Below, in pieces: positions 3,262-57,851 of a DNA stretch of 64,000 bases. The position numbers and the translations under genes were made by a program. The stretch is taken from assembly GCF_011045215.1 (NCBI RefSeq), contig NZ_CP049201.1; one strand, 5' to 3'. The notes beneath the pieces are model-generated. The model was given only the letters and a program-made list of their open reading frames with translations. It did no database searches and was not told where the DNA came from. The DNA comes from Escherichia coli (GTDB lineage Bacteria > Pseudomonadota > Gammaproteobacteria > Enterobacterales > Enterobacteriaceae). Every line of letters starts with the position of its first letter. Position 1 is the stretch's first letter.

Positions 3262-5334
<2,073 letters not shown>

Positions 5335-6918: not shown

Positions 6919-9092
<2,174 letters not shown>

Positions 9093-9183
9093 TACGTATC
9101 CTTATACCTGAAATCTTCGCAAGTATGCCTGGCCGCGAGATTATGGCACACTTGTCCGGTTAACTCTCGTCTCATACAGGTAA

Positions 9184-9203
9184 CACAAACGTGAAAATCC
9201 TTG
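9184..9203. repeat. prophage attL core (20-bp direct repeat)
   Basis: AAAATCCTTGTTGATGAAAA is repeated exactly at 46009..46028; the two copies bracket the prophage. Confidence 0.65.
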
Positions 9204-9296
9204 TTGATGAAAAAAACAAAGATTTAATTTATTGATATAAAAGGATTTGTATCAGCGTATGTCCACGCGGTGACCACATTTTCGAGAGGTAGAGTA

Positions 9297-9323
9297 AGCC
9301 CGCAACATTGCGGGCTTTGTCTT
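9297..9323 (+). terminator. plus-strand hairpin and T-tract just inside the prophage left end
   Basis: agcccgcaacattgcgggct followed by ttgtctt; in the circularised phage this would lie downstream of int across attP. Confidence 0.45.
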
Positions 9324-10113
9324 ATGGTTCGATCGCCGTTTTGAGACGTTGTGTTGCTACATCAAAATAATGATCACTGGTTTCTATACCAATAAATTTG
9401 CGTCCTGCTTTCAGTGCAGCCACACCCGTTGTCCCTGACCCCATAAAAGGATCAAGGACTGTTCCACCACTATTCGCAGTCCTGACCAGCTCTGCCATAA
9501 GTTCTTCTGGCTTTCCGGTCGGGTGCATTTTCTTTGACGGGATAACCGGGAACGTCATGCAGCCGTCGAACGGACCTGAAGGCGATTTATCTAAATGGCC
9601 TTTGCTGCCCCAGACGATGTATTCACACTGATGCCGGAAATACCCCGTATGGGGTGTTCGTGACCCCCTTCCTTTGTTCCACACAATGATTCCACGCCAT
9701 GTAAAACCGCTGGCCTGAAACGCATCGGTTAAAGCTGGTAGTTGTCGCCAGTCAGTAAATACCAGGGCATAACCGCCCGGTCTGACCGCGCGGTGTGCCT
9801 GTGCCATCCATAATTGTGTCCAGTAAGCCCACGAACGGGCGTCCATGTTTTCACCCGCGAACCCATCAAAGCGGTGAAGGTTCCCGCCGTTCAGATATTT
9901 TGCATGGCTGCCCTGGTTGGTGCGTCCGGCCTTGTGTGTCGCACCCGAACTGTAAGGCGGGTCAGTGATTAAAGCATCAATGCTTTCTGGCTCAATCAGC
10001 GGCAATATTTCCAGCGCATTCCCACGACAGAGCGTGGCATTGTCAGTCTGATAAACCTTAGTGTGTTCCGGTGTATGTGCTGGTTGGTGCTGGATTGCGA
10101 TCCCCACGGTCAT
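9322..10113 (-). CDS. DNA amino-methyltransferase (N6-adenine or N4-cytosine)
   Basis: 263 aa; DPPY motif (ITDPPYSSG) precedes the AdoMet motif (FMGSGTTG), i.e. permuted motif order; AGGAG 3 nt before the ATG, lying inside the com 3' end. Confidence 0.85.
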   Translation of the reverse strand: MTVGIAIQHQPAHTPEHTKVYQTDNATLCRGNALEILPLIEPESIDALITDPPYSSGATHKAGRTNQGSHAKYLNGGNLHRFDGFAGENMDARSWAYWTQLWMAQAHRAVRPGGYALVFTDWRQLPALTDAFQASGFTWRGIIVWNKGRGSRTPHTGYFRHQCEYIVWGSKGHLDKSPSGPFDGCMTFPVIPSKKMHPTGKPEELMAELVRTANSGGTVLDPFMGSGTTGVAALKAGRKFIGIETSDHYFDVATQRLKTAIEP

Positions 10114-10255
10114 AACTCCTCATGTGTGTGGGGTGCTCGATGGCTCTCGTTATCTGGTTAAGTGTTTTGCAGCGCGGACATTTTATTTCAATGTAGTGAA
10201 ATGAGGCGCGGGCAAGTAGTTTGTTGCAATTTTTGCATCGTACATTTTGCGTCAT
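10058..10255 (-). CDS. com: Com-like zinc-finger translational regulator
   Basis: MTQNVRCKNCNKLL...IEIKCPRCKTLN resembles Mu Com as recalled (CxxC...CxxC); 3' end overlaps the methyltransferase start by about 56 nt. Confidence 0.75.
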   Translation of the reverse strand: MTQNVRCKNCNKLLARASFHYIEIKCPRCKTLNQITRAIEHPTHMRSYDRGDRNPAPTSTYTGTH

Positions 10256-10302
10256 TTGCGGCACCTCTTGTGTGGTTACTGCTGCCGATATGATAGCAAA
10301 TC

Positions 10303-10337
10303 GATCGTTTTTATCGATCGGATTTATTGCATCGATC
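10303..10337 (-). promoter_or_regulatory. cluster of three GATC sites upstream of com
   Basis: Three TCGATC motifs at 10303, 10315 and 10334 within 35 bp, 40-80 bp upstream of the com start. Confidence 0.5.
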
Positions 10338-10365
10338 TGTTATGTCTATTGCTCATGGATGGGGA

Positions 10366-10401
10366 TACCAAAAAGAAAACCCGCAGTTTTTACGCTGCGG
10401 G
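10366..10401 (-). terminator. rho-independent terminator (minus strand)
   Basis: On the minus strand cccgcag-cgtaaaaa-ctgcggg followed by ttttctttttgg. Confidence 0.6.
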
Positions 10402-10490
10402 CTTGTTGTTCATGTCTGTGAGATAGGGTGCCTTATCGACCTTACCCTGACAACCGATTGACGGGGGATTGCTCCCCCGTCGCGGTTTCC

Positions 10491-10631
10491 TTACTGCTTA
10501 CACTGTAAGAACGCCGCAAACTCCGCTCCCCAGAAGCTCATCCGTATTTCGCATAGCGAACCGTGCAGCATCCAGATGATGAGGATTGCCGTCACGCAGA
10601 ACGTGATGGCCGTAAGCGATTTTTGCGACAT
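10491..10631 (-). CDS. hypothetical 46-aa hydrophobic peptide
   Basis: MSQKSLTAITFCVTAILIIWMLHG...; AAGGAG 8 nt upstream of the ATG; below the ORF-track cutoff so read directly from sequence. Confidence 0.3.
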   Translation of the reverse strand: MSQKSLTAITFCVTAILIIWMLHGSLCEIRMSFWGAEFAAFLQCKQ

Positions 10632-10821
10632 AGCACTTGCTCCTTTTCCGGAGAGGCGCTAACCTTTCACTTGTCAAGGTAATGCGGTTAGGGCCTCGGT
10701 TAAACAGAGATGTTTTCCGGGGCCTTTCCACATCTGGCCTTCGGGTATTCCCTCCGACCATCAGCCGAAAGGCACCCGCGCGTAATCTATCGCTTTTTTG
10801 TTACTCCGGCAATTCTGCCTG

Positions 10822-11082
10822 TTAATTCTGAGGTAAAGGCAAACTCATCTGATTGTTTCCCCTGTGTGAAGCTGGCAGATCATGCCATGGGATACCTTCT
10901 GATGAGTGAACGCCGGAGGCGTGTTTCGATGTAAATTTATGGAAAGCTTCCAGTGTTGAGAAGCATACGCCGCATTCCAGGTTGTTACACTGGTAATACT
11001 TTTGCCGCACGGTGTTTGAATCATTTTCCGGACGACTGGTGCGGATACGGGCAGATGCGCCACAAAGCGGACAACGGAACAT
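10822..11082 (-). CDS. ogr: Ogr/Delta-type zinc-finger late-gene activator
   Basis: MFRCPLCGASARIRTSR...YYQCNNLECGVCF resembles the P2 Ogr Cys4 finger as recalled. Confidence 0.85.
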   Translation of the reverse strand: MFRCPLCGASARIRTSRPENDSNTVRQKYYQCNNLECGVCFSTLEAFHKFTSKHASGVHSSEGIPWHDLPASHRGNNQMSLPLPQN

Positions 11083-11124: not shown

Positions 11125-12234
11125 TCACTCTGTTTCCGCTATCCATTCCGGGATTTTTGCCTCAAGCTCAAGCTGTGTGGTAAAGCCACTGTTATCAATG
11201 GTGTGCTCGGCTTTTGCAATAATCCAGTCCTGATTATCAATCTCGCTTTTAAATCCTGTTACCGTGCCATGCATTTCGGGGTAGAGTTCTGCGCGTCCGC
11301 GTGCCAGTGTGATGGAGAATGATGCGGCTCCGCGTTGTAGTTGTTGCCACTTTGCCGCCGCTGCGCGTCTTGCTGCCTGCTCGTTCTGATAAGTCTTGCG
11401 TAACACAAACACATTGCCTTCCGCGCCTTCCATATAATCACCTTCACGGCTGCTGCTTTTCTCTTTTTTCGGTTTTGGCGGTTTGCGGCGTTTCACGCTG
11501 ACTTTTTTCTTTTTCCCGTAATTAAGATCAAGCCAGTAAGCGCGTACCCCCGTATACGCCTCGCGGTCAGCAATGCGGAACTGATGGCGATCGCCGCTGC
11601 TGCGTGTGATGGCGAACGAGGGCAACGGCTGGCCCTGTGCGTTCACGCCACCGCCGGGCATGATGAATAACAGATTACCGCTTTTTACCGTGGTGATTGC
11701 GCCCAGCATTTCCGCCATGCGCGTAAGGAAGGACATGTCACTTTCTTCGGTCTGGTCGGCGTGGTCGATTTCGATATCCATCAGCATTTCGCTGATTTGC
11801 GGTTTCAGACCGTACCGATGAGCGATGGCGGATACCACACGCTCAACGGTCACATCATGCCAGGACATCTCACGTTTAACGTTAAATTCATCCCGAAAAT
11901 CTGCGCTTCTGGCTGAAACAGTCAGCCTGTCCGGCGGTCCTTCGTGAGCGATTTCATCAACAATGTAAGTGCCTTTTTCTGTCAGCGGTTCTCCTTTCCA
12001 GCCAATGAGAACCGTCAGGCGCGCGCCCCGTGGCGGTAGCTGCAACTGACCATCCGCATCATCCAGCGTGATGGTGAGCTGGTCCGCCTCAAATCCCCGG
12101 TTGTCGGTCAGTGACAGGCTCATCAGGCGCTCGGCCACGCCTGACAGCGTTTTACCCTCCGCGAGAATATCAAAATCCGGCATTTTCACGGGGTCTGTGC
12201 CCTGACTGAGCAATTGCATGGTGGTATCGGTCAT
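11125..12234 (-). CDS. D: tail protein D (gpD / late control D family)
   Basis: Listed ORF 11125..12366; GGAGGG precedes ATG at 12234 (MTDTTMQLL..); lysine-rich central segment; C-terminal NSGFTTQLELEAKIPEW as in gpD. Confidence 0.85.
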   Translation of the reverse strand: MTDTTMQLLSQGTDPVKMPDFDILAEGKTLSGVAERLMSLSLTDNRGFEADQLTITLDDADGQLQLPPRGARLTVLIGWKGEPLTEKGTYIVDEIAHEGPPDRLTVSARSADFRDEFNVKREMSWHDVTVERVVSAIAHRYGLKPQISEMLMDIEIDHADQTEESDMSFLTRMAEMLGAITTVKSGNLLFIMPGGGVNAQGQPLPSFAITRSSGDRHQFRIADREAYTGVRAYWLDLNYGKKKKVSVKRRKPPKPKKEKSSSREGDYMEGAEGNVFVLRKTYQNEQAARRAAAAKWQQLQRGAASFSITLARGRAELYPEMHGTVTGFKSEIDNQDWIIAKAEHTIDNSGFTTQLELEAKIPEWIAETE

Positions 12235-12391
12235 CTGTTCCCTCCCTGTGCGGCATGGTCGCATGTGCGTGCGGAGGGGGTTACTGCTTTTTGTTGTCGC
12301 CGTGGCGGGAGAACGGCGCAGGGGTGAGATTACGCGCGTGGTGGGTGATGATTGTTGCCGAATCATTTAACGGATACAAGGGGCTGAAGCT

Positions 12392-40745: not shown

Positions 40746-41227
40746 TGCGGCAATCCTCTTGTTACAGATGTGCGAAGGCCTCCCGCCGCAAGGTGCAGGA
40801 AAGGCCCGGAACAGGAATTAATGGAGTTTGTTTTGCTGCTGGATGAGCTGTTGAAGCTCGTGCAGATCATCCGCCAGATAGCTGAAAACAGAGGCGGAAT
40901 AAATGTTTGATAGTGCGTGGCTGCGCTCATGCCGCATATTGATGTGCATGATTTGCGCGACGCGTGATGCGCGGGAAAGTCTGCGGTTGATTTCAGTCTG
41001 GATGTGACGACGCTCCGCGATAGCGCGGTGCTGTTTGCGGTCTGCCATGGTGTGGCCTCTTTGCTCGGTGATAGAAATAACTCACCATCCAGAGTTGAGA
41101 ATCTCGGGGTGGCGAGACGTACAGGGTTCTCAACACCGGAGAGCAAAGAATCCGGCCCGACCGAAGTCGGCCCCGTACGCCCCGCCATAATTCTGACGCG
41201 AAAAAGACGTGGCAATACAGTACGCAC

Positions 41228-41248
41228 AAAAAAACCGCTTGCGCGGTT
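41228..41248 (-). terminator. rho-independent terminator (minus strand)
   Basis: On the minus strand aaccgcgcaagcggtt followed by TTTTTTT. Confidence 0.5.
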
Positions 41249-41370
41249 ATGCGCTTTGCTCTGTATCGGGTTGAGAATCCCGGCACCCGTTTTATGAGGT
41301 GCAGCGGAAATGTAACCTGACCGATTGAGGCATGGCAAGCGGTTTTTTTGTGTGTGCATGTTCTGGTTTC

Positions 41371-44404: not shown

Positions 44405-44725
44405 ATGATCCATAAATCAAGCCTTGGAGAAAAACTTCGCCTGATTCGAGAGGCAGAGGGATTGTCACGTAGAGAGATGGAAGAGGTGACAGGGGTATCT
44501 CAAAACAATCTCAAAAATTATGAAATATTGGGAAGAATGATACCTGGAGAAACGCTACTCCTGATTTTGAATCATCCTCGTTTTCGGAAGTATTCGGATT
44601 GGGTGATGTTTAATCAAACTAATGCTGCGACGGGGCAGATTGCTCCGCCTCTCTCTCTTGATGGCTTCTTCGATTCGGAGGGCGATCAGGTTTCAACCGA
44701 AACAAACCAAAAATCACCCCGCTAA
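44405..44725 (+). CDS. C: immunity repressor C (HTH)
   Basis: ..LRLIREAEGLSRREMEEVTGVSQNNLKNYE.. HTH and ..TGQIAP.. resemble P2 C; listed ORF 44387..44725. Confidence 0.78.
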   Translation: MIHKSSLGEKLRLIREAEGLSRREMEEVTGVSQNNLKNYEILGRMIPGETLLLILNHPRFRKYSDWVMFNQTNAATGQIAPPLSLDGFFDSEGDQVSTETNQKSPR

Positions 44726-44821
44726 GGCCAGAAAACTGGTTAGACCTGCTCTTTGTCTGGTCTGATTATTGCTGGAAAGAGGCTGGAGAAATTGTAGAGC
44801 GGTTCATTGGAGGGCTTCGCA

Positions 44822-45826
44822 ATGTCAATTAAGAAGCTCGAAGATGGTCGTTATTTGCTGGACATCAGGCCGAACGGACGCAAGGGAAAGCGCGTGCGTA
44901 AGGTATTTGACAAAAAATCGGTAGCGGTGGCCACTGAACGCTACATCATGGCGAACGCTGAAAAGCGGGAATATATACAGGGCTACCGTGATCGCCGAAC
45001 GCTAAATGATTTGCTTGAGTTGTGGTGGATGTATCACGGTCAACACAGGCGTAAGGCGGAAGAAGACCGAAAACAACTGCGCAACATAATCAATGAGCTT
45101 GGCGCTGATATGCAGGCTGTGGATCTTGATAAGCTGAAAATTATCGCGTGGCGTTCTCAAAAGATAGCTGATGGATTGAAACCGTCATCTGCTAACAGAT
45201 ACATGAATCGGTTATCCGGAATGTTTACCGTACTGAAGAAAATAGGCCTCTGGGATGCAGAACATCCGGTAAGGGGAATTTCTATTCTTTATGTATCTCC
45301 ACGAGAAATGGCTTTCCTGTCCCAGAAGGAAGTGGCGCTATTGCTCGATACACTGGAGGGCGATTACTGGCGTGTTGCGCTTTTGTGTTTAAGCACGGGG
45401 GCGCGCTGGAGTGAAGCTTGTAAGCTTCGTGGTGAACAGATAGTTCATAACCGTGTAACGTTTCTTGAAACCAAAAATGGCCGAAAGAGAACAGTGCCAA
45501 TTTCGCAGGCAGTTTGTGAGGCGATCAAAACCAGAGAAACAGGCGGCTTGTTTGAGGTGAAGTACCGGGAATTCTGCTTGGCGCTGAAAAGAGTTAAGCC
45601 CGATTTGCCAAAAGGCCAGGCTGCACATGTGCTGCGGCATACGTTCGCCAGCCATTTTGTGATGAACGGAGGAAACATTATTGCGCTTCAGAAGATTCTT
45701 GGCCACGCAACCATTCAGCAAACAATGGCATATGCACATTTTGCACCGGATTACCTGCAGGATGCGGTGGCCCTTAATCCGCTGAAAGGTGGCGTGAGTG
45801 TCCACGCAGTGTCCACGGGGGATTAA
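44822..45826 (+). CDS. int: tyrosine integrase (P2 Int family)
   Basis: MSIKKLEDGRYLLDIRPNGRKGKRVRK.. N-terminus and C-terminal ..HVLRHTFASHFVMNGGNIIALQKILGHATIQQTMAYAHFAPDYLQDA.. resemble P2 Int. Confidence 0.93.
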   Translation: MSIKKLEDGRYLLDIRPNGRKGKRVRKVFDKKSVAVATERYIMANAEKREYIQGYRDRRTLNDLLELWWMYHGQHRRKAEEDRKQLRNIINELGADMQAVDLDKLKIIAWRSQKIADGLKPSSANRYMNRLSGMFTVLKKIGLWDAEHPVRGISILYVSPREMAFLSQKEVALLLDTLEGDYWRVALLCLSTGARWSEACKLRGEQIVHNRVTFLETKNGRKRTVPISQAVCEAIKTRETGGLFEVKYREFCLALKRVKPDLPKGQAAHVLRHTFASHFVMNGGNIIALQKILGHATIQQTMAYAHFAPDYLQDAVALNPLKGGVSVHAVSTGD

Positions 45827-57068: not shown

Positions 57069-57851
57069 ATGAAAAAACTGGTGCTATCGCTCTCTCTGGT
57101 TCTGGCCTTCTCCAGCGCAACTGCGGCATTTGCTGCGATTCCGCAAAACATCCGCATCGGTACCGACCCGACCTATGCGCCATTTGAATCAAAAAATTCA
57201 CAAGGCGAACTGGTTGGCTTCGATATCGATCTGGCAAAGGAATTATGCAAACGCATCAATACGCAATGTACGTTTGTCGAAAATCCGCTGGATGCGTTAA
57301 TCCCGTCCTTAAAAGCGAAGAAGATTGACGCCATCATGTCATCGCTTTCCATTACGGAAAAACGTCAGCAAGAAATAGCCTTCACCGACAAACTGTACGC
57401 TGCCGATTCTCGTCTGGTGGTGGCGAAAAATTCCGACATTCAGCCGACAGTCGAGTCGCTGAAAGGCAAACGGGTAGGCGTATTGCAGGGCACCACTCAG
57501 GAGACGTTCGGTAATGAACATTGGGCACCAAAAGGCATTGAAATCGTCTCGTATCAGGGGCAGGACAACATTTATTCTGACCTGACTGCCGGACGTATTG
57601 ATGCCGCGTTCCAGGATGAGGTCGCTGCCAGCGAAGGTTTCCTCAAACAACCTGTCGGTAAAGATTACAAATTCGGTGGCCCGTCTGTTAAAGATGAAAA
57701 ACTGTTTGGCGTAGGGACCGGCATGGGCCTGCGTAAAGAAGATAACGAACTGCGCGAGGCACTGAACAAAGCCTTTGCCGAAATGCGCGCTGACGGTACT
57801 TACGAGAAATTAGCGAAAAAGTACTTCGATTTTGATGTTTATGGTGGTTAA
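57069..57851 (+). CDS. hisJ: histidine-binding periplasmic protein
   Basis: 260 aa, signal peptide; first gene of hisJQMP. Confidence 0.92.

Follow-up and report, generated by a model that had tools for sequence, protein, structure and literature searches.

A probable hok/sok-family toxin-antitoxin module between ogr and com in a P88-like prophage of Escherichia coli

What function, if any, resides in the spacer that separates ogr from the com-methylase unit in an Escherichia coli prophage? In the window, a 64,000-nucleotide stretch of E. coli DNA (contig NZ_CP049201.1), this spacer was originally predicted to carry a 46-aa hydrophobic ORF with a strong RBS, G+C-rich hairpins, and a minus-strand terminator. 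All of these features were found, as were the neighboring genes, and the G+C-rich hairpins are located at 10460 to 10481, 10692 to 10724, and 10735 to 10761. We consider it highly probable (approximately 0.9) that the region from 10368 to 10812 on the minus strand is a hok/sok-family type I toxin-antitoxin module. The spacer as delimited earlier (10402 to 10821) is real, but the functional unit runs from approximately 10368 to 10812 and includes the terminator. The original prediction gave no family name (Hok/Gef) and missed that spacer, ORF, and terminator belong together, along with a putative antisense gene, in a single unit controlled through RNA.

The module is carried as cargo close to the end of a P88-like (P2-like; Xuanwuvirus) prophage in the E. 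coli chromosome. The ogr gene (10822 to 11082, minus strand; Pfam Ogr_Delta) lies directly upstream, with no terminator between ogr and hok. This adjacency suggests a link between prophage induction and the supply of toxin mRNA. On the other side, a rho-independent hok terminator (10368 to 10404, minus strand) separates ogr and hok from the downstream genes com (10058 to 10264, minus strand; Pfam Zn_ribbon_Com) and the methylase gene (9322 to 10113, minus strand; Pfam N6_N4_Mtase). The terminator consists of a hairpin reading from 10404 to 10377 with 10 pairs, 6 of them G-C, followed by TCTTTTT (tail TCTTTTTGGT). It is conserved in P88-like copies and several chromosomal copies of the module but not in the Stx-phage copies.

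The 46-codon ORF (10491 to 10631, minus strand; MSQKSLTAITFCVTAILIIWMLHGSLCEIRMSFWGAEFAAFLQCKQ) was designated hok, encoding a Hok/Gef-family membrane toxin, on the basis of Pfam, PHROG, and RefSeq matches and of its dN/dS values. Residues 7 to 44 matched Pfam PF01848 (HOK_GEF) with 29.9 bits versus a gathering cutoff of 22 (E = 4.1e-7), and the full-length peptide matched PHROG 251, labeled "MokW-like host killing" in the moron category (80.6 bits, E = 1.3e-22). RefSeq has a Hok/Gef family protein, WP_000078916.1, annotated at exactly the position of the ORF, the annotated record being 100% identical across the 466-bp query. An SD sequence, AAGGAG (10645 to 10640), is located 8 nt upstream of the ATG. 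The published Hok logo has seven residues conserved in more than 80% of sequences: M1, C16, T18, L30, C31, E32, and E41 (bioRxiv 10.1101/2025.08.07.668861). All seven are present in the window peptide, as M1, C12-x-T14, L26-C27-E28, and E37, and the spacing is the same as in the logo (C-x-T, 12 residues to LCE, and a further 10 to E).

The hok frame is under purifying selection. The dN/dS values were 0.08 to 0.28 for the seven pairs with nonsynonymous changes, and the two closest pairs differed by 3 to 4 synonymous changes only. Ten of 12 aligned relatives and 57 of 59 IMG/VR copies had the frame intact, and among the latter the window peptide was the second commonest, so conservation as a coding frame with a prevalence of synonymous changes is established. 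This selection supports the earlier proposal of a toxin or membrane-acting moron. Evidence on toxicity upon induction comes from the literature. An identical peptide, 72_1621 (plasmid LRP137), belongs to a set of 45 Hok homologues that were cloned and assayed for toxicity under arabinose induction, and the only sequences that the preprint text names as nontoxic are 19_179, 60_1482, and 69_1540 (bioRxiv 10.1101/2025.08.07.668861). Cluster 72 of the same catalogue includes the exact peptide and a Stx-phage variant, 72_1589 (Table S2, flagged "HAC" and cloned for the toxicity test). The module is already annotated and catalogued. The catalogue deliberately analyzed the Hok coding sequence only and left Mok, Sok, and the mRNA boundaries unresolved (bioRxiv 10.1101/2025.08.07.668861); the regulatory anatomy mapped here is absent from that paper.

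Two named systems were compared with the window peptide and leader. By NCBIfam, the closest named Hok is HokA (HokA equivalog, E = 2e-8). However, the Hok models scored below cutoff for the 46-aa peptide (34 versus 89 bits for HokA, NF007290, and 21.6 versus 73 for the generic model), and the peptide is therefore described as HokA-like rather than as HokA. The leaders of hokA and of the window module align, with the common motifs GGGUGC, GAAAAGCCCC, AAGGUUAGC, and CCUCU. Relatives begin with MPQK, and an AAFL.CK motif is kept in all of them. The two differ in that hokA has a mokA start (GAGG-N8-ATG) and a weak hok SD, whereas the window lineage has CCCTAAC and AAGGAG. The second system, hokW-sokW of the Stx2 prophage Sp5/933W, is an experimentally supported prophage-borne type I system of the hok/sok family in which the antisense RNA can pair with 71 nt of the 5' UTR by complementarity, with partial RNase III and Hfq dependence, and Hok is produced upon prophage induction (PMC8621323). 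Both hokW-sokW and the window peptide fall under "MokW-like host killing" in PHROGs, but HokW has 51 aa, starts with MKQQKAM, and is translated from an mRNA that starts with GGGTGCTTGAGG. Orthology with hokW-sokW was rejected on primer sequences and coordinates, which place a different hok locus, of another lineage, in the same phages: in VT2-Sakai the HokW 5' end is at 57778 to 57827 and the homologue of the window module is at 44532 to 44906. In related Stx phages this homologue sits beside lom, distinct from the hokW locus. The label "MokW-like" on the 46-aa ORF is a misnomer; the ORF is Hok.

The predicted hok promoter (10784 to 10812, minus strand) has a -35 hexamer TTGCCG (10812 to 10807), a 17-nt spacer, and a -10 hexamer TAGATT (10789 to 10784). 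Transcription is predicted to start at G10777, 45 nt past the ogr stop codon. The hexamers score 8 of 12 and are conserved across 45 distinct modules. A strict sigma-70 consensus scan of 10300 to 10860 found no promoter, neither that of hok nor that of sok, and both assignments thus rest on positional conservation and analogy rather than on consensus strength. The predicted full-length mRNA, approximately 410 nt from the start to the U-tract of the terminator (10368 to 10777, minus strand), was delimited with an Rfam start, the terminator, and the fold. The match to Rfam RF01794, the hok/sok leader model, starts at 10777 and covers the full model length (1 to 157) with 48.4 bits (E = 5e-9), which is below the gathering score of 59, and it is absent from a gathering-level scan. 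This Rfam model bears the name sok, and it aligns in the hok sense, since both SD and AUG lie at its 3' end. The name is thus a second misleading label, after "MokW-like," attached to this locus.

The hok RNA is predicted to be highly structured. The 352-nt core folded at -160.5 kcal/mol versus -118 +/- 6 kcal/mol for shuffled sequences (z = -6.98), and 0 of 100 shuffles were as good. The RNAalifold consensus of 12 copies has 93 pairs, which are 97.3% paired. Compensatory changes were found in 18 of the 93 pairs versus 9.9 +/- 1.8 in shuffled alignments (0 of 500 reached 18) and 0 to 4 in slid controls, with the consensus structure derived from the same 12 related sequences in which pairs were counted, which inflates the controls.

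The elements of an R1-like switch were identified within this fold. The 5' end of the mRNA, GGGUGCCUUUCGGCU (10763 to 10777, minus strand), is the putative tac element and pairs in the full-length RNA with a putative fbi element, GGUCGAUAAGGCACCC (10426 to 10441, minus strand), which in the folding models locks the full-length mRNA. In both the MFE structure and the RNAalifold consensus, positions +1 to +15 pair with the last 17 nt. The tac/fbi helices (helices 1 and 2) are 97.6 to 100% paired in the 12 copies, in which the helix has no double compensatory pair, only invariant positions or one-sided changes; tac is invariant across copies that were retrieved with this same 15-mer. The natural fbi variants GGCAUCC and GGCACUC retain pairing as G.U. 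When the 3' end is trimmed in the model, tac re-pairs with GAAAGGCCCC (10728 to 10719), the equivalent of ucb. In a hairpin (10640 to 10660, minus strand; helices 8 and 9) that is 98.6 to 100% paired, the hok SD AAGGAG and the bases leading to the start codon are paired to an anti-SD, UAGCGCCUCU (10660 to 10651). The predicted target of the Sok 5' tail (10667 to 10681, minus strand) is the 5' strand of the long-range helix 7, whose partner is at 10444 to 10457 and in which 5 pairs have compensatory changes. In the folding model, the probability that this target is unpaired increases from 0.13 to 0.51 upon 3' trimming. The target is also the most variable part of the module, with a mean entropy of 0.61 bits versus 0.21 to 0.39 elsewhere. 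Mean SD accessibility was 0.20 in the full-length RNA, 0.28 in the trimmed RNA, and 0.20 in the Sok-bound RNA; these changes are small, and their direction was the same in 9 of 11 copies. Toward the 3' end, the stem-loop GACGGGGGA-GCAA-UCCCCCGUC (10460 to 10481, minus strand; helix 16) is 100% paired, with compensatory changes in 4 pairs. By analogy with the 3' processing of R1 (PMC9841398), this stem-loop is predicted to stop 3'-to-5' trimming, in which case the active mRNA would end there.

A Sok-like antisense RNA is predicted from the opposite strand. Its putative promoter (10637 to 10665, plus strand), recognized from conserved hexamers, has a -35 box TTGCTC (10637 to 10642), which is the complement of the hok SD region, a 17-nt spacer, and a -10 box TAACCT (10660 to 10665), a layout that we take to be the same as that of the R1 sok promoter. 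The -10 box is invariant in all 45 distinct modules, and the -35 box is found in 40 of 44. The candidate RNA of approximately 60 nt (10672 to 10733, plus strand) is predicted from the conserved promoter hexamers, its terminator hairpin, and homology to sokC of K-12. It would have a single-stranded 5' tail, a hairpin (GGGCCUCGG...CCGGGGCCU), and then UUUCC with a weak U-tract, and it folds at -26.4 kcal/mol (z = -3.43). To set its ends, the candidate was aligned with sokC as annotated in K-12, an RNA complementary to positions +44 to +102 of the hokC mRNA. K-12 sokA was set aside as an anchor in favor of sokC, since the hokA leader is broken up by IS150 and has no annotated sokA feature.

The resulting architecture can be compared with that of R1 hok/mok/sok, which is experimentally supported (PMC9841398). 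A plasmid blastn search did not reach R1-type hok/sok sequences, which are too diverged, and the comparison is based on the Rfam alignment, the description published in NAR in 2022, and the R1 sequence. Shared features are a small Hok/Gef membrane toxin, a long structured mRNA folded back through tac and fbi, a ucb-like element with which the 5' end would pair once the 3' end is trimmed, the leader GAGG, and a 3' hairpin with a predicted protective role. In addition, the putative antisense gene is placed as in R1, with the -35 box opposite the hok SD and the -10 box opposite AGG(U/A)UAGC. The window locus differs in having no conserved mok, in the strong SD of hok itself, in a peptide of 46 aa versus 52 aa in R1, and in its location in a prophage, whereas the R1 locus is on a plasmid.

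A working model can be drawn from the R1 paradigm and the folding models. The full-length hok mRNA would be stable but inert. Slow 3' trimming back to the hairpin at 10460 to 10481 would strip off fbi as well as the 3' half of helix 7. The 5' end could then re-pair with GAAAGGCCCC, freeing GAGGC, which would capture the anti-SD and thereby expose the hok SD and the Sok target. As long as the prophage is present, the short-lived Sok-like RNA (approximately 10672 to 10733, opposite strand) would bind the target segment, keeping the SD closed and triggering RNase III decay. If Sok synthesis stopped, through element loss, transcription shut-off, or prophage induction, the mRNA pool would be translated, and Hok would depolarize the inner membrane. 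The most likely role is selfish stabilization of the prophage end or cargo region; alternatives are help with lysis upon induction or exclusion of other phages.

Matches to the module were found in 1,553 of 5,426 complete E. coli genomes (approximately 29%). The contexts include P88-like prophages, Stx phages in which the module lies beside lom, an IncI1 plasmid, and chromosomal sites. Homology among copies starts exactly at the hok -35 box and ends just past fbi, with unrelated sequence upstream, and thus the module is conserved as a unit across unrelated genomic contexts. In the 15-mer scan of viral contigs, 22 of 64 distinct hits were discarded as unrelated chance matches.

These data bear on whether the locus is a working module at all. 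One possibility is that both ORF and hairpins arose by chance in a noncoding spacer, or that the hairpins are terminators or insulators between ogr and com. The length of an ORF is by itself uninformative in this region, as 76 ORFs of 25 aa or more overlap the surrounding 5 kb, and the hairpin at 10377 to 10404 is terminator-like on both strands. However, neither the Pfam match (E = 4e-7) nor the mostly synonymous change within the frame would be expected of such a spacer, and the module moves as a unit between unrelated contexts with covariation above that of controls. The family match, selection, module conservation, and covariation refute the chance 46-codon frame that the original prediction had offered as an alternative, and the broader explanation retains almost no plausibility. 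A better case, though still a very improbable one, can be made for an inactive evolutionary relic from which toxin and antitoxin are no longer expressed. Inactive relics are numerous among chromosomal hok loci, including those of K-12, where hokA is interrupted by IS150. In the window module both promoters match the consensus poorly, and decayed copies of the module exist: one has an 8-nt deletion (L005), one a stop at codon 2 (L009), one is interrupted (L056), and one is frameshifted (L102). In the window copy, however, the ORF, SD, promoter hexamers, tac, fbi, 3' hairpin, and terminator are all intact. Across lineages, purifying selection persists, as does covariation in the structure; the matches in 1,553 complete genomes also count against a relic, and the toxicity screen that included the identical peptide does not name it as nontoxic in its text.

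A further question concerns mok. A conserved GAGG (10694 to 10697, minus strand) sits where R1 and hokA have their mok SD, but here it lacks a start codon, with CCCUAAC in place of the CCCUAUG of hokA. An 87-codon ORF overlaps hok (10498 to 10761, minus strand). It was rejected as mok because it is not a conserved gene: in relatives the frame has no start codon or ends at a stop at +230 (TGTGA). It is open in the window because a synonymous TGT-to-TGC change in hok deletes that stop. The ORF had no Pfam match, and no leader ORF was conserved in any frame among the aligned relatives. Cognate or near-cognate start codons were sought 3 to 15 nt past GAGG in frames open as far as the hok SD; 11 of 12 aligned copies had none, nor did 33 of the 42 distinct modules from IMG/VR. 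In 26 of these 42 modules, each of the three frames meets a stop codon on the way from GAGG to the hok SD. The window has only an AUU, 10 nt past GAGG, whose frame reaches the hok SD.

It could nevertheless be that the module is a classical three-gene hok/mok/sok system in which the 87-codon frame, or its AUU-initiated part (from +95), serves as mok and hok translation depends on it. Shifted one base relative to hok, a frame in the window stays open between +2 and +280 and ends 7 nt before the hok stop, a geometry that is presumably the same as that of R1 mok, and the AUU is shared by 8 of the 42 distinct IMG/VR modules. Moreover, hokA retains its GAGG-N8-ATG start, and mok is required in R1 (PMC9841398). 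The rarity of suitable starts past GAGG and the TGTGA stop of the long frame in relatives argue against this reading. Furthermore, AUU initiates translation very poorly, and hok is served by a strong, well-spaced AAGGAG of its own, in contrast to the weak, G-rich SD of hokA. A classical three-gene system is therefore unlikely.

The lack of conservation of mok weakens the description of the locus as a canonical hok/mok/sok system, not its hok/sok-like working. It is the only feature of the module that departs from the textbook, and with mok not conserved, the R1 mechanism is not transferable unchanged. Because hok has its own strong SD and no conserved mok, its control is probably purely structural, without translational coupling. 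We tentatively propose a more specific history, which we regard as possible but less likely than not. According to this proposal, the cluster 72 lineage (P88-like prophages, the site beside lom in Stx phages, and some plasmids) is a mok-less hok/sok in which the mok start was lost (CCCUAUG to CCCUAAC), hok gained a strong SD, and the former mok SD, GAGGC, became an RNA "anti-anti-SD." Once 3' trimming let the 5' end capture GAAAGGCCCC, the released GAGGC would draw the anti-SD away from the hok SD. Sok would repress through masking of GAGGC and its flank instead of through a block on leader-peptide translation, and the hypervariable target of the Sok tail would prevent cross-talk between co-resident copies. 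Nothing relevant to a mok-less hok was found among the papers searched.

For the annotation of this prophage, a spacer described as an ORF plus hairpins resolves into a cassette of roughly a dozen mapped elements. The gain for biology is small, given that the enrichment of hok in prophages is already known (bioRxiv 10.1101/2025.08.07.668861) and that the exact peptide has been annotated and screened for toxicity. What may interest a specialist is that no mok is conserved in a lineage present in more than one-quarter of complete E. coli genomes. The R1 paradigm treats translational coupling through mok as essential; a natural variant without mok, if the proposal is true, would show the same RNA switch working by structure alone.

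The region between ogr and com (about 10368-10812, minus strand) is, with a probability of about 0.9, a hok/sok-type module. The original prediction was of a structured spacer carrying a 46-codon hydrophobic ORF that might encode a toxin or might be a chance frame. The finding is real and the suspicion of a toxin was right. The ORF (10491..10631, minus strand), with the strong Shine-Dalgarno (SD) sequence AAGGAG 8 nt 5' of its ATG, encodes the peptide MSQKSLTAITFCVTAILIIWMLHGSLCEIRMSFWGAEFAAFLQCKQ, which scored 29.9 bits against Pfam HOK_GEF (above the curated cutoff of 22) and 80.6 bits in its match to PHROG 251. All seven residues conserved in >80% of Hok peptides are present and correctly spaced, and the RefSeq annotation of this very ORF is 'Hok/Gef family protein' (WP_000078916.1). 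The nearest NCBIfam model was HokA, at 34 bits versus a cutoff of 89, a score so far below the cutoff that the peptide is assigned to a HokA-like lineage and not to HokA. A preprint on Hok diversity lists the identical peptide in its Table S2 as 72_1621 and reports its cloning (plasmid LRP137) to assay toxicity under arabinose induction (bioRxiv 10.1101/2025.08.07.668861). Of the 45 Hok sequences tested there, the text describes just three as nontoxic, and this one is not among them (bioRxiv 10.1101/2025.08.07.668861).

Conservation of the coding frame, proposed with the original prediction as a check, also favors a gene over a chance frame. We aligned 12 copies (72-100% identity) from P88-like phages and prophages, Stx phages, an IncI1 plasmid, and chromosomal sites. 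The Hok frame was intact in 10 copies and decayed in 2, with dN/dS versus the window copy of 0.08-0.28 in the seven pairs having nonsynonymous changes; the two closest pairs differed by 3-4 synonymous changes and no nonsynonymous ones. The 12 copies share homology from the -35 box of the predicted hok promoter to a point just past the 3' GGCACCC element. Because the homology is bounded in this way and the flanks are unrelated (in Stx phages, for example, the module lies beside lom), the module moves as a unit. Scanning IMG/VR with the invariant 5' 15-mer recovered 59 true modules (42 distinct sequences), in 57 of which the Hok frame is intact (46-48 aa); 22 further distinct matches were unrelated chance hits and were discarded. 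A match was present in 1553 of the 5426 complete E. coli genomes, with up to seven per genome. Decayed copies show that the lineage erodes in some hosts: the E. albertii plasmid pEA5_1 copy (L009) has a stop at codon 2 plus deletions, the Stx2_EH2011 copy (L005) has an 8-nt deletion, and two other copies are interrupted after the leader (L056) or frameshifted (L102).

What was described as a structured spacer corresponds to the hok mRNA. The GC-rich hairpins that had been noted were found, as was the minus-strand terminator, which lies at 10404..10377 and is that of the hok mRNA. The RNA from +1 (G10777) to the 3' fbi element (10426-10441) folds at -160.5 kcal/mol (z = -6.98 versus shuffles), and the RNAalifold consensus of the 12 copies has 93 pairs (97.3% paired). 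Compensatory changes were seen in 18 pairs, compared with 9.9 +/- 1.8 in column shuffles (none of 500 equaled the observed value) and 0-4 in slid controls, although these controls are generous, the consensus structure having been computed from these related copies themselves. In the consensus fold, tac (10763-10777; +1 to +15) pairs with the last 17 nt in a helix that is invariant or has one-sided changes only, and the natural fbi variants GGCAUCC and GGCACUC retain pairing as G.U. Five covarying pairs mark helix 7 (10667-10681 with 10444-10457), in which the segment opposite the 5' tail of the antisense RNA is buried, and four mark a 3' hairpin (10460-10481). The minus-strand fold also includes an anti-SD/SD hairpin (10640-10660) and a helix between the hok start-codon region and the FAAF codons. 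Rfam RF01794 aligned over its whole length to 10618-10777(-) (E = 5e-9; 48.4 bits, below the gathering score of 59). The model is named 'sok', yet it contains the SD and AUG at its 3' end and so aligns in the hok sense.

An antisense Sok-like RNA is likely present, as judged from its predicted promoter and fold. On the plus strand, a predicted -35 box, TTGCTC (10637-10642; in 40 of 44 distinct modules), lies opposite the hok SD and is separated by 17 nt from a -10 box, TAACCT (10660-10665), that is invariant in all 45 distinct modules. The R1 sok promoter occupies the corresponding position, with its -35 box opposite the hok SD. A strict consensus scan gave no match to this promoter, and Sok is thus a probable, predicted RNA. 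The candidate RNA would begin at about 10672(+) and fold into a strong hairpin (z = -3.43), after which comes UUUCC. The K-12 annotation has sokC complementary to hokC +44 to +102, and alignment with hokC/sokC places the equivalent here at about 10672-10733(+). Within the module, variability peaks (0.61 bits versus 0.21-0.39 elsewhere) in the segment that faces the 5' tail of Sok, where even copies that are 94-98% identical differ from one another.

The R1 hok mRNA is trimmed back at its 3' end (PMC9841398). We modeled such a switch by cutting the RNA after the 3' hairpin and refolding it in silico. In the predicted fold of the trimmed RNA, GAAAGGCCCC (10728-10719), the equivalent of ucb, becomes the new partner of the 5' end, and GAGGC (10697-10693) pairs with the anti-SD. 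Trimming would in this way open the Sok-tail target, the predicted unpaired probability of which rose from 0.13 at full length to 0.51. Mean predicted SD accessibility across 11 copies was 0.20 at full length, 0.28 after trimming, and 0.20 after trimming with the Sok-covered segment blocked, in the same direction in 9 of the 11. The direction fits the modeled switch; the effect size is modest.

It might be supposed that the locus is hokW-sokW, the proven type I toxin-antitoxin system of Sp5, which promotes lysis and phage release upon induction (PMC8621323). However, HokW has 51 aa, beginning MKQQKAM, whereas the window Hok is 46 aa, and in VT2-Sakai (NC_000902.1) the 5' end of hokW (57778-57827) and the homologue of the window locus (44532-44906) are at separate positions, as they are in AF125520.1 (58737-58786 and 45491-45865, respectively). 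The identification with hokW-sokW was rejected on these grounds. Thus, Stx2 phages carry two hok loci. The second, 46 aa and beside lom in related Stx phages, is often unannotated or labeled 'hypothetical' or 'MokW-like', and we found no RNA-level study of it in the literature searched.

The 466-bp segment 10360-10825 is 100% identical to E. coli strains KSC9 and SCU-152. The window source is an E. coli chromosome, and the prophage is P2-like (P88 / Xuanwuvirus), with the minus-strand order gpD (11125..12366), ogr (10822..11082), the hok/sok region, com (10058..10264), an overlapping DNA N6/N4 methyltransferase (9322..10113), and host flk (8097..9092). In KSC9, flk also adjoins the methylase, which places the prophage end and attachment site at about 9093-9321. 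The P88 genome ends soon past hok and lacks the com-methylase pair; this unit is therefore additional cargo that entered between hok and the prophage attachment site. Upstream of com, 10265-10350 holds three GATC sites within repeated ATCGATCG motifs, one of which is the hairpin TCGATCGTTTTTATCGATCGG (10301-10321). These sites are presumably comparable to the GATC cluster that precedes com-mom in Mu and is controlled by Dam and OxyR; unlike in Mu, com overlaps a methyltransferase gene rather than a Mom-type modification gene. The gpD-like ORF is 413 aa counted from its first ATG; for its KSC9 counterpart (L001, the KSC9 record, 3766-4566) RefSeq has only an 801-bp gene and an adjacent pseudogene fragment. 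A gathering-level Rfam scan also found two neighboring RNAs at 41105-41192(-) and 41228-41302(-), a C4 antisense RNA (RF01695, 78.5 bits) and the Hfq-binding RNA isrK (RF01394, 63.1 bits); the two presumably form an antisense immunity pair of the P1/P7 type within this prophage's early region.

The 45 nt from the ogr stop codon (10822-10824) to hok +1 are occupied by the predicted hok promoter, and no terminator was found in this gap (10777-10822). In Stx phages, in contrast, a terminator hairpin (CCCGC...GCGGGTTTTTT) precedes the module. With no terminator after ogr, hok transcripts extended at the 5' end could additionally arise upon induction, by read-through from ogr or by late transcription.

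An 87-codon ORF (10498..10761, minus strand) overlaps hok with the geometry of mok, the overlapping leader ORF of R1. It was rejected as mok: in relatives the frame has no start or is stopped at TGTGA inside hok, and in the window a synonymous TGT-to-TGC change in hok opens it. No cognate or near-cognate start 3-15 nt past the conserved GAGG with a frame reaching the hok SD was found in 11 of the 12 aligned copies or in 33 of the 42 distinct IMG/VR modules; stops block all three frames in 26 of the 42. The sole candidate start in the window sub-lineage is AUU at +95. Whereas hokA retains GAGG-N8-ATG and a weak hok SD, the window hok has AAGGAG. The blocked frames and the contrast with hokA suggest that this Hok lineage is without mok. 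The preprint on Hok diversity left Mok out of its analysis (bioRxiv 10.1101/2025.08.07.668861), and the literature searched yielded no paper on a mok-less hok. The module belongs to a well-known family; it is widespread and has been annotated and catalogued before, and only its apparent loss of mok is out of the ordinary. It is possible, although less likely than not, that the module works without mok via a purely structural relay.
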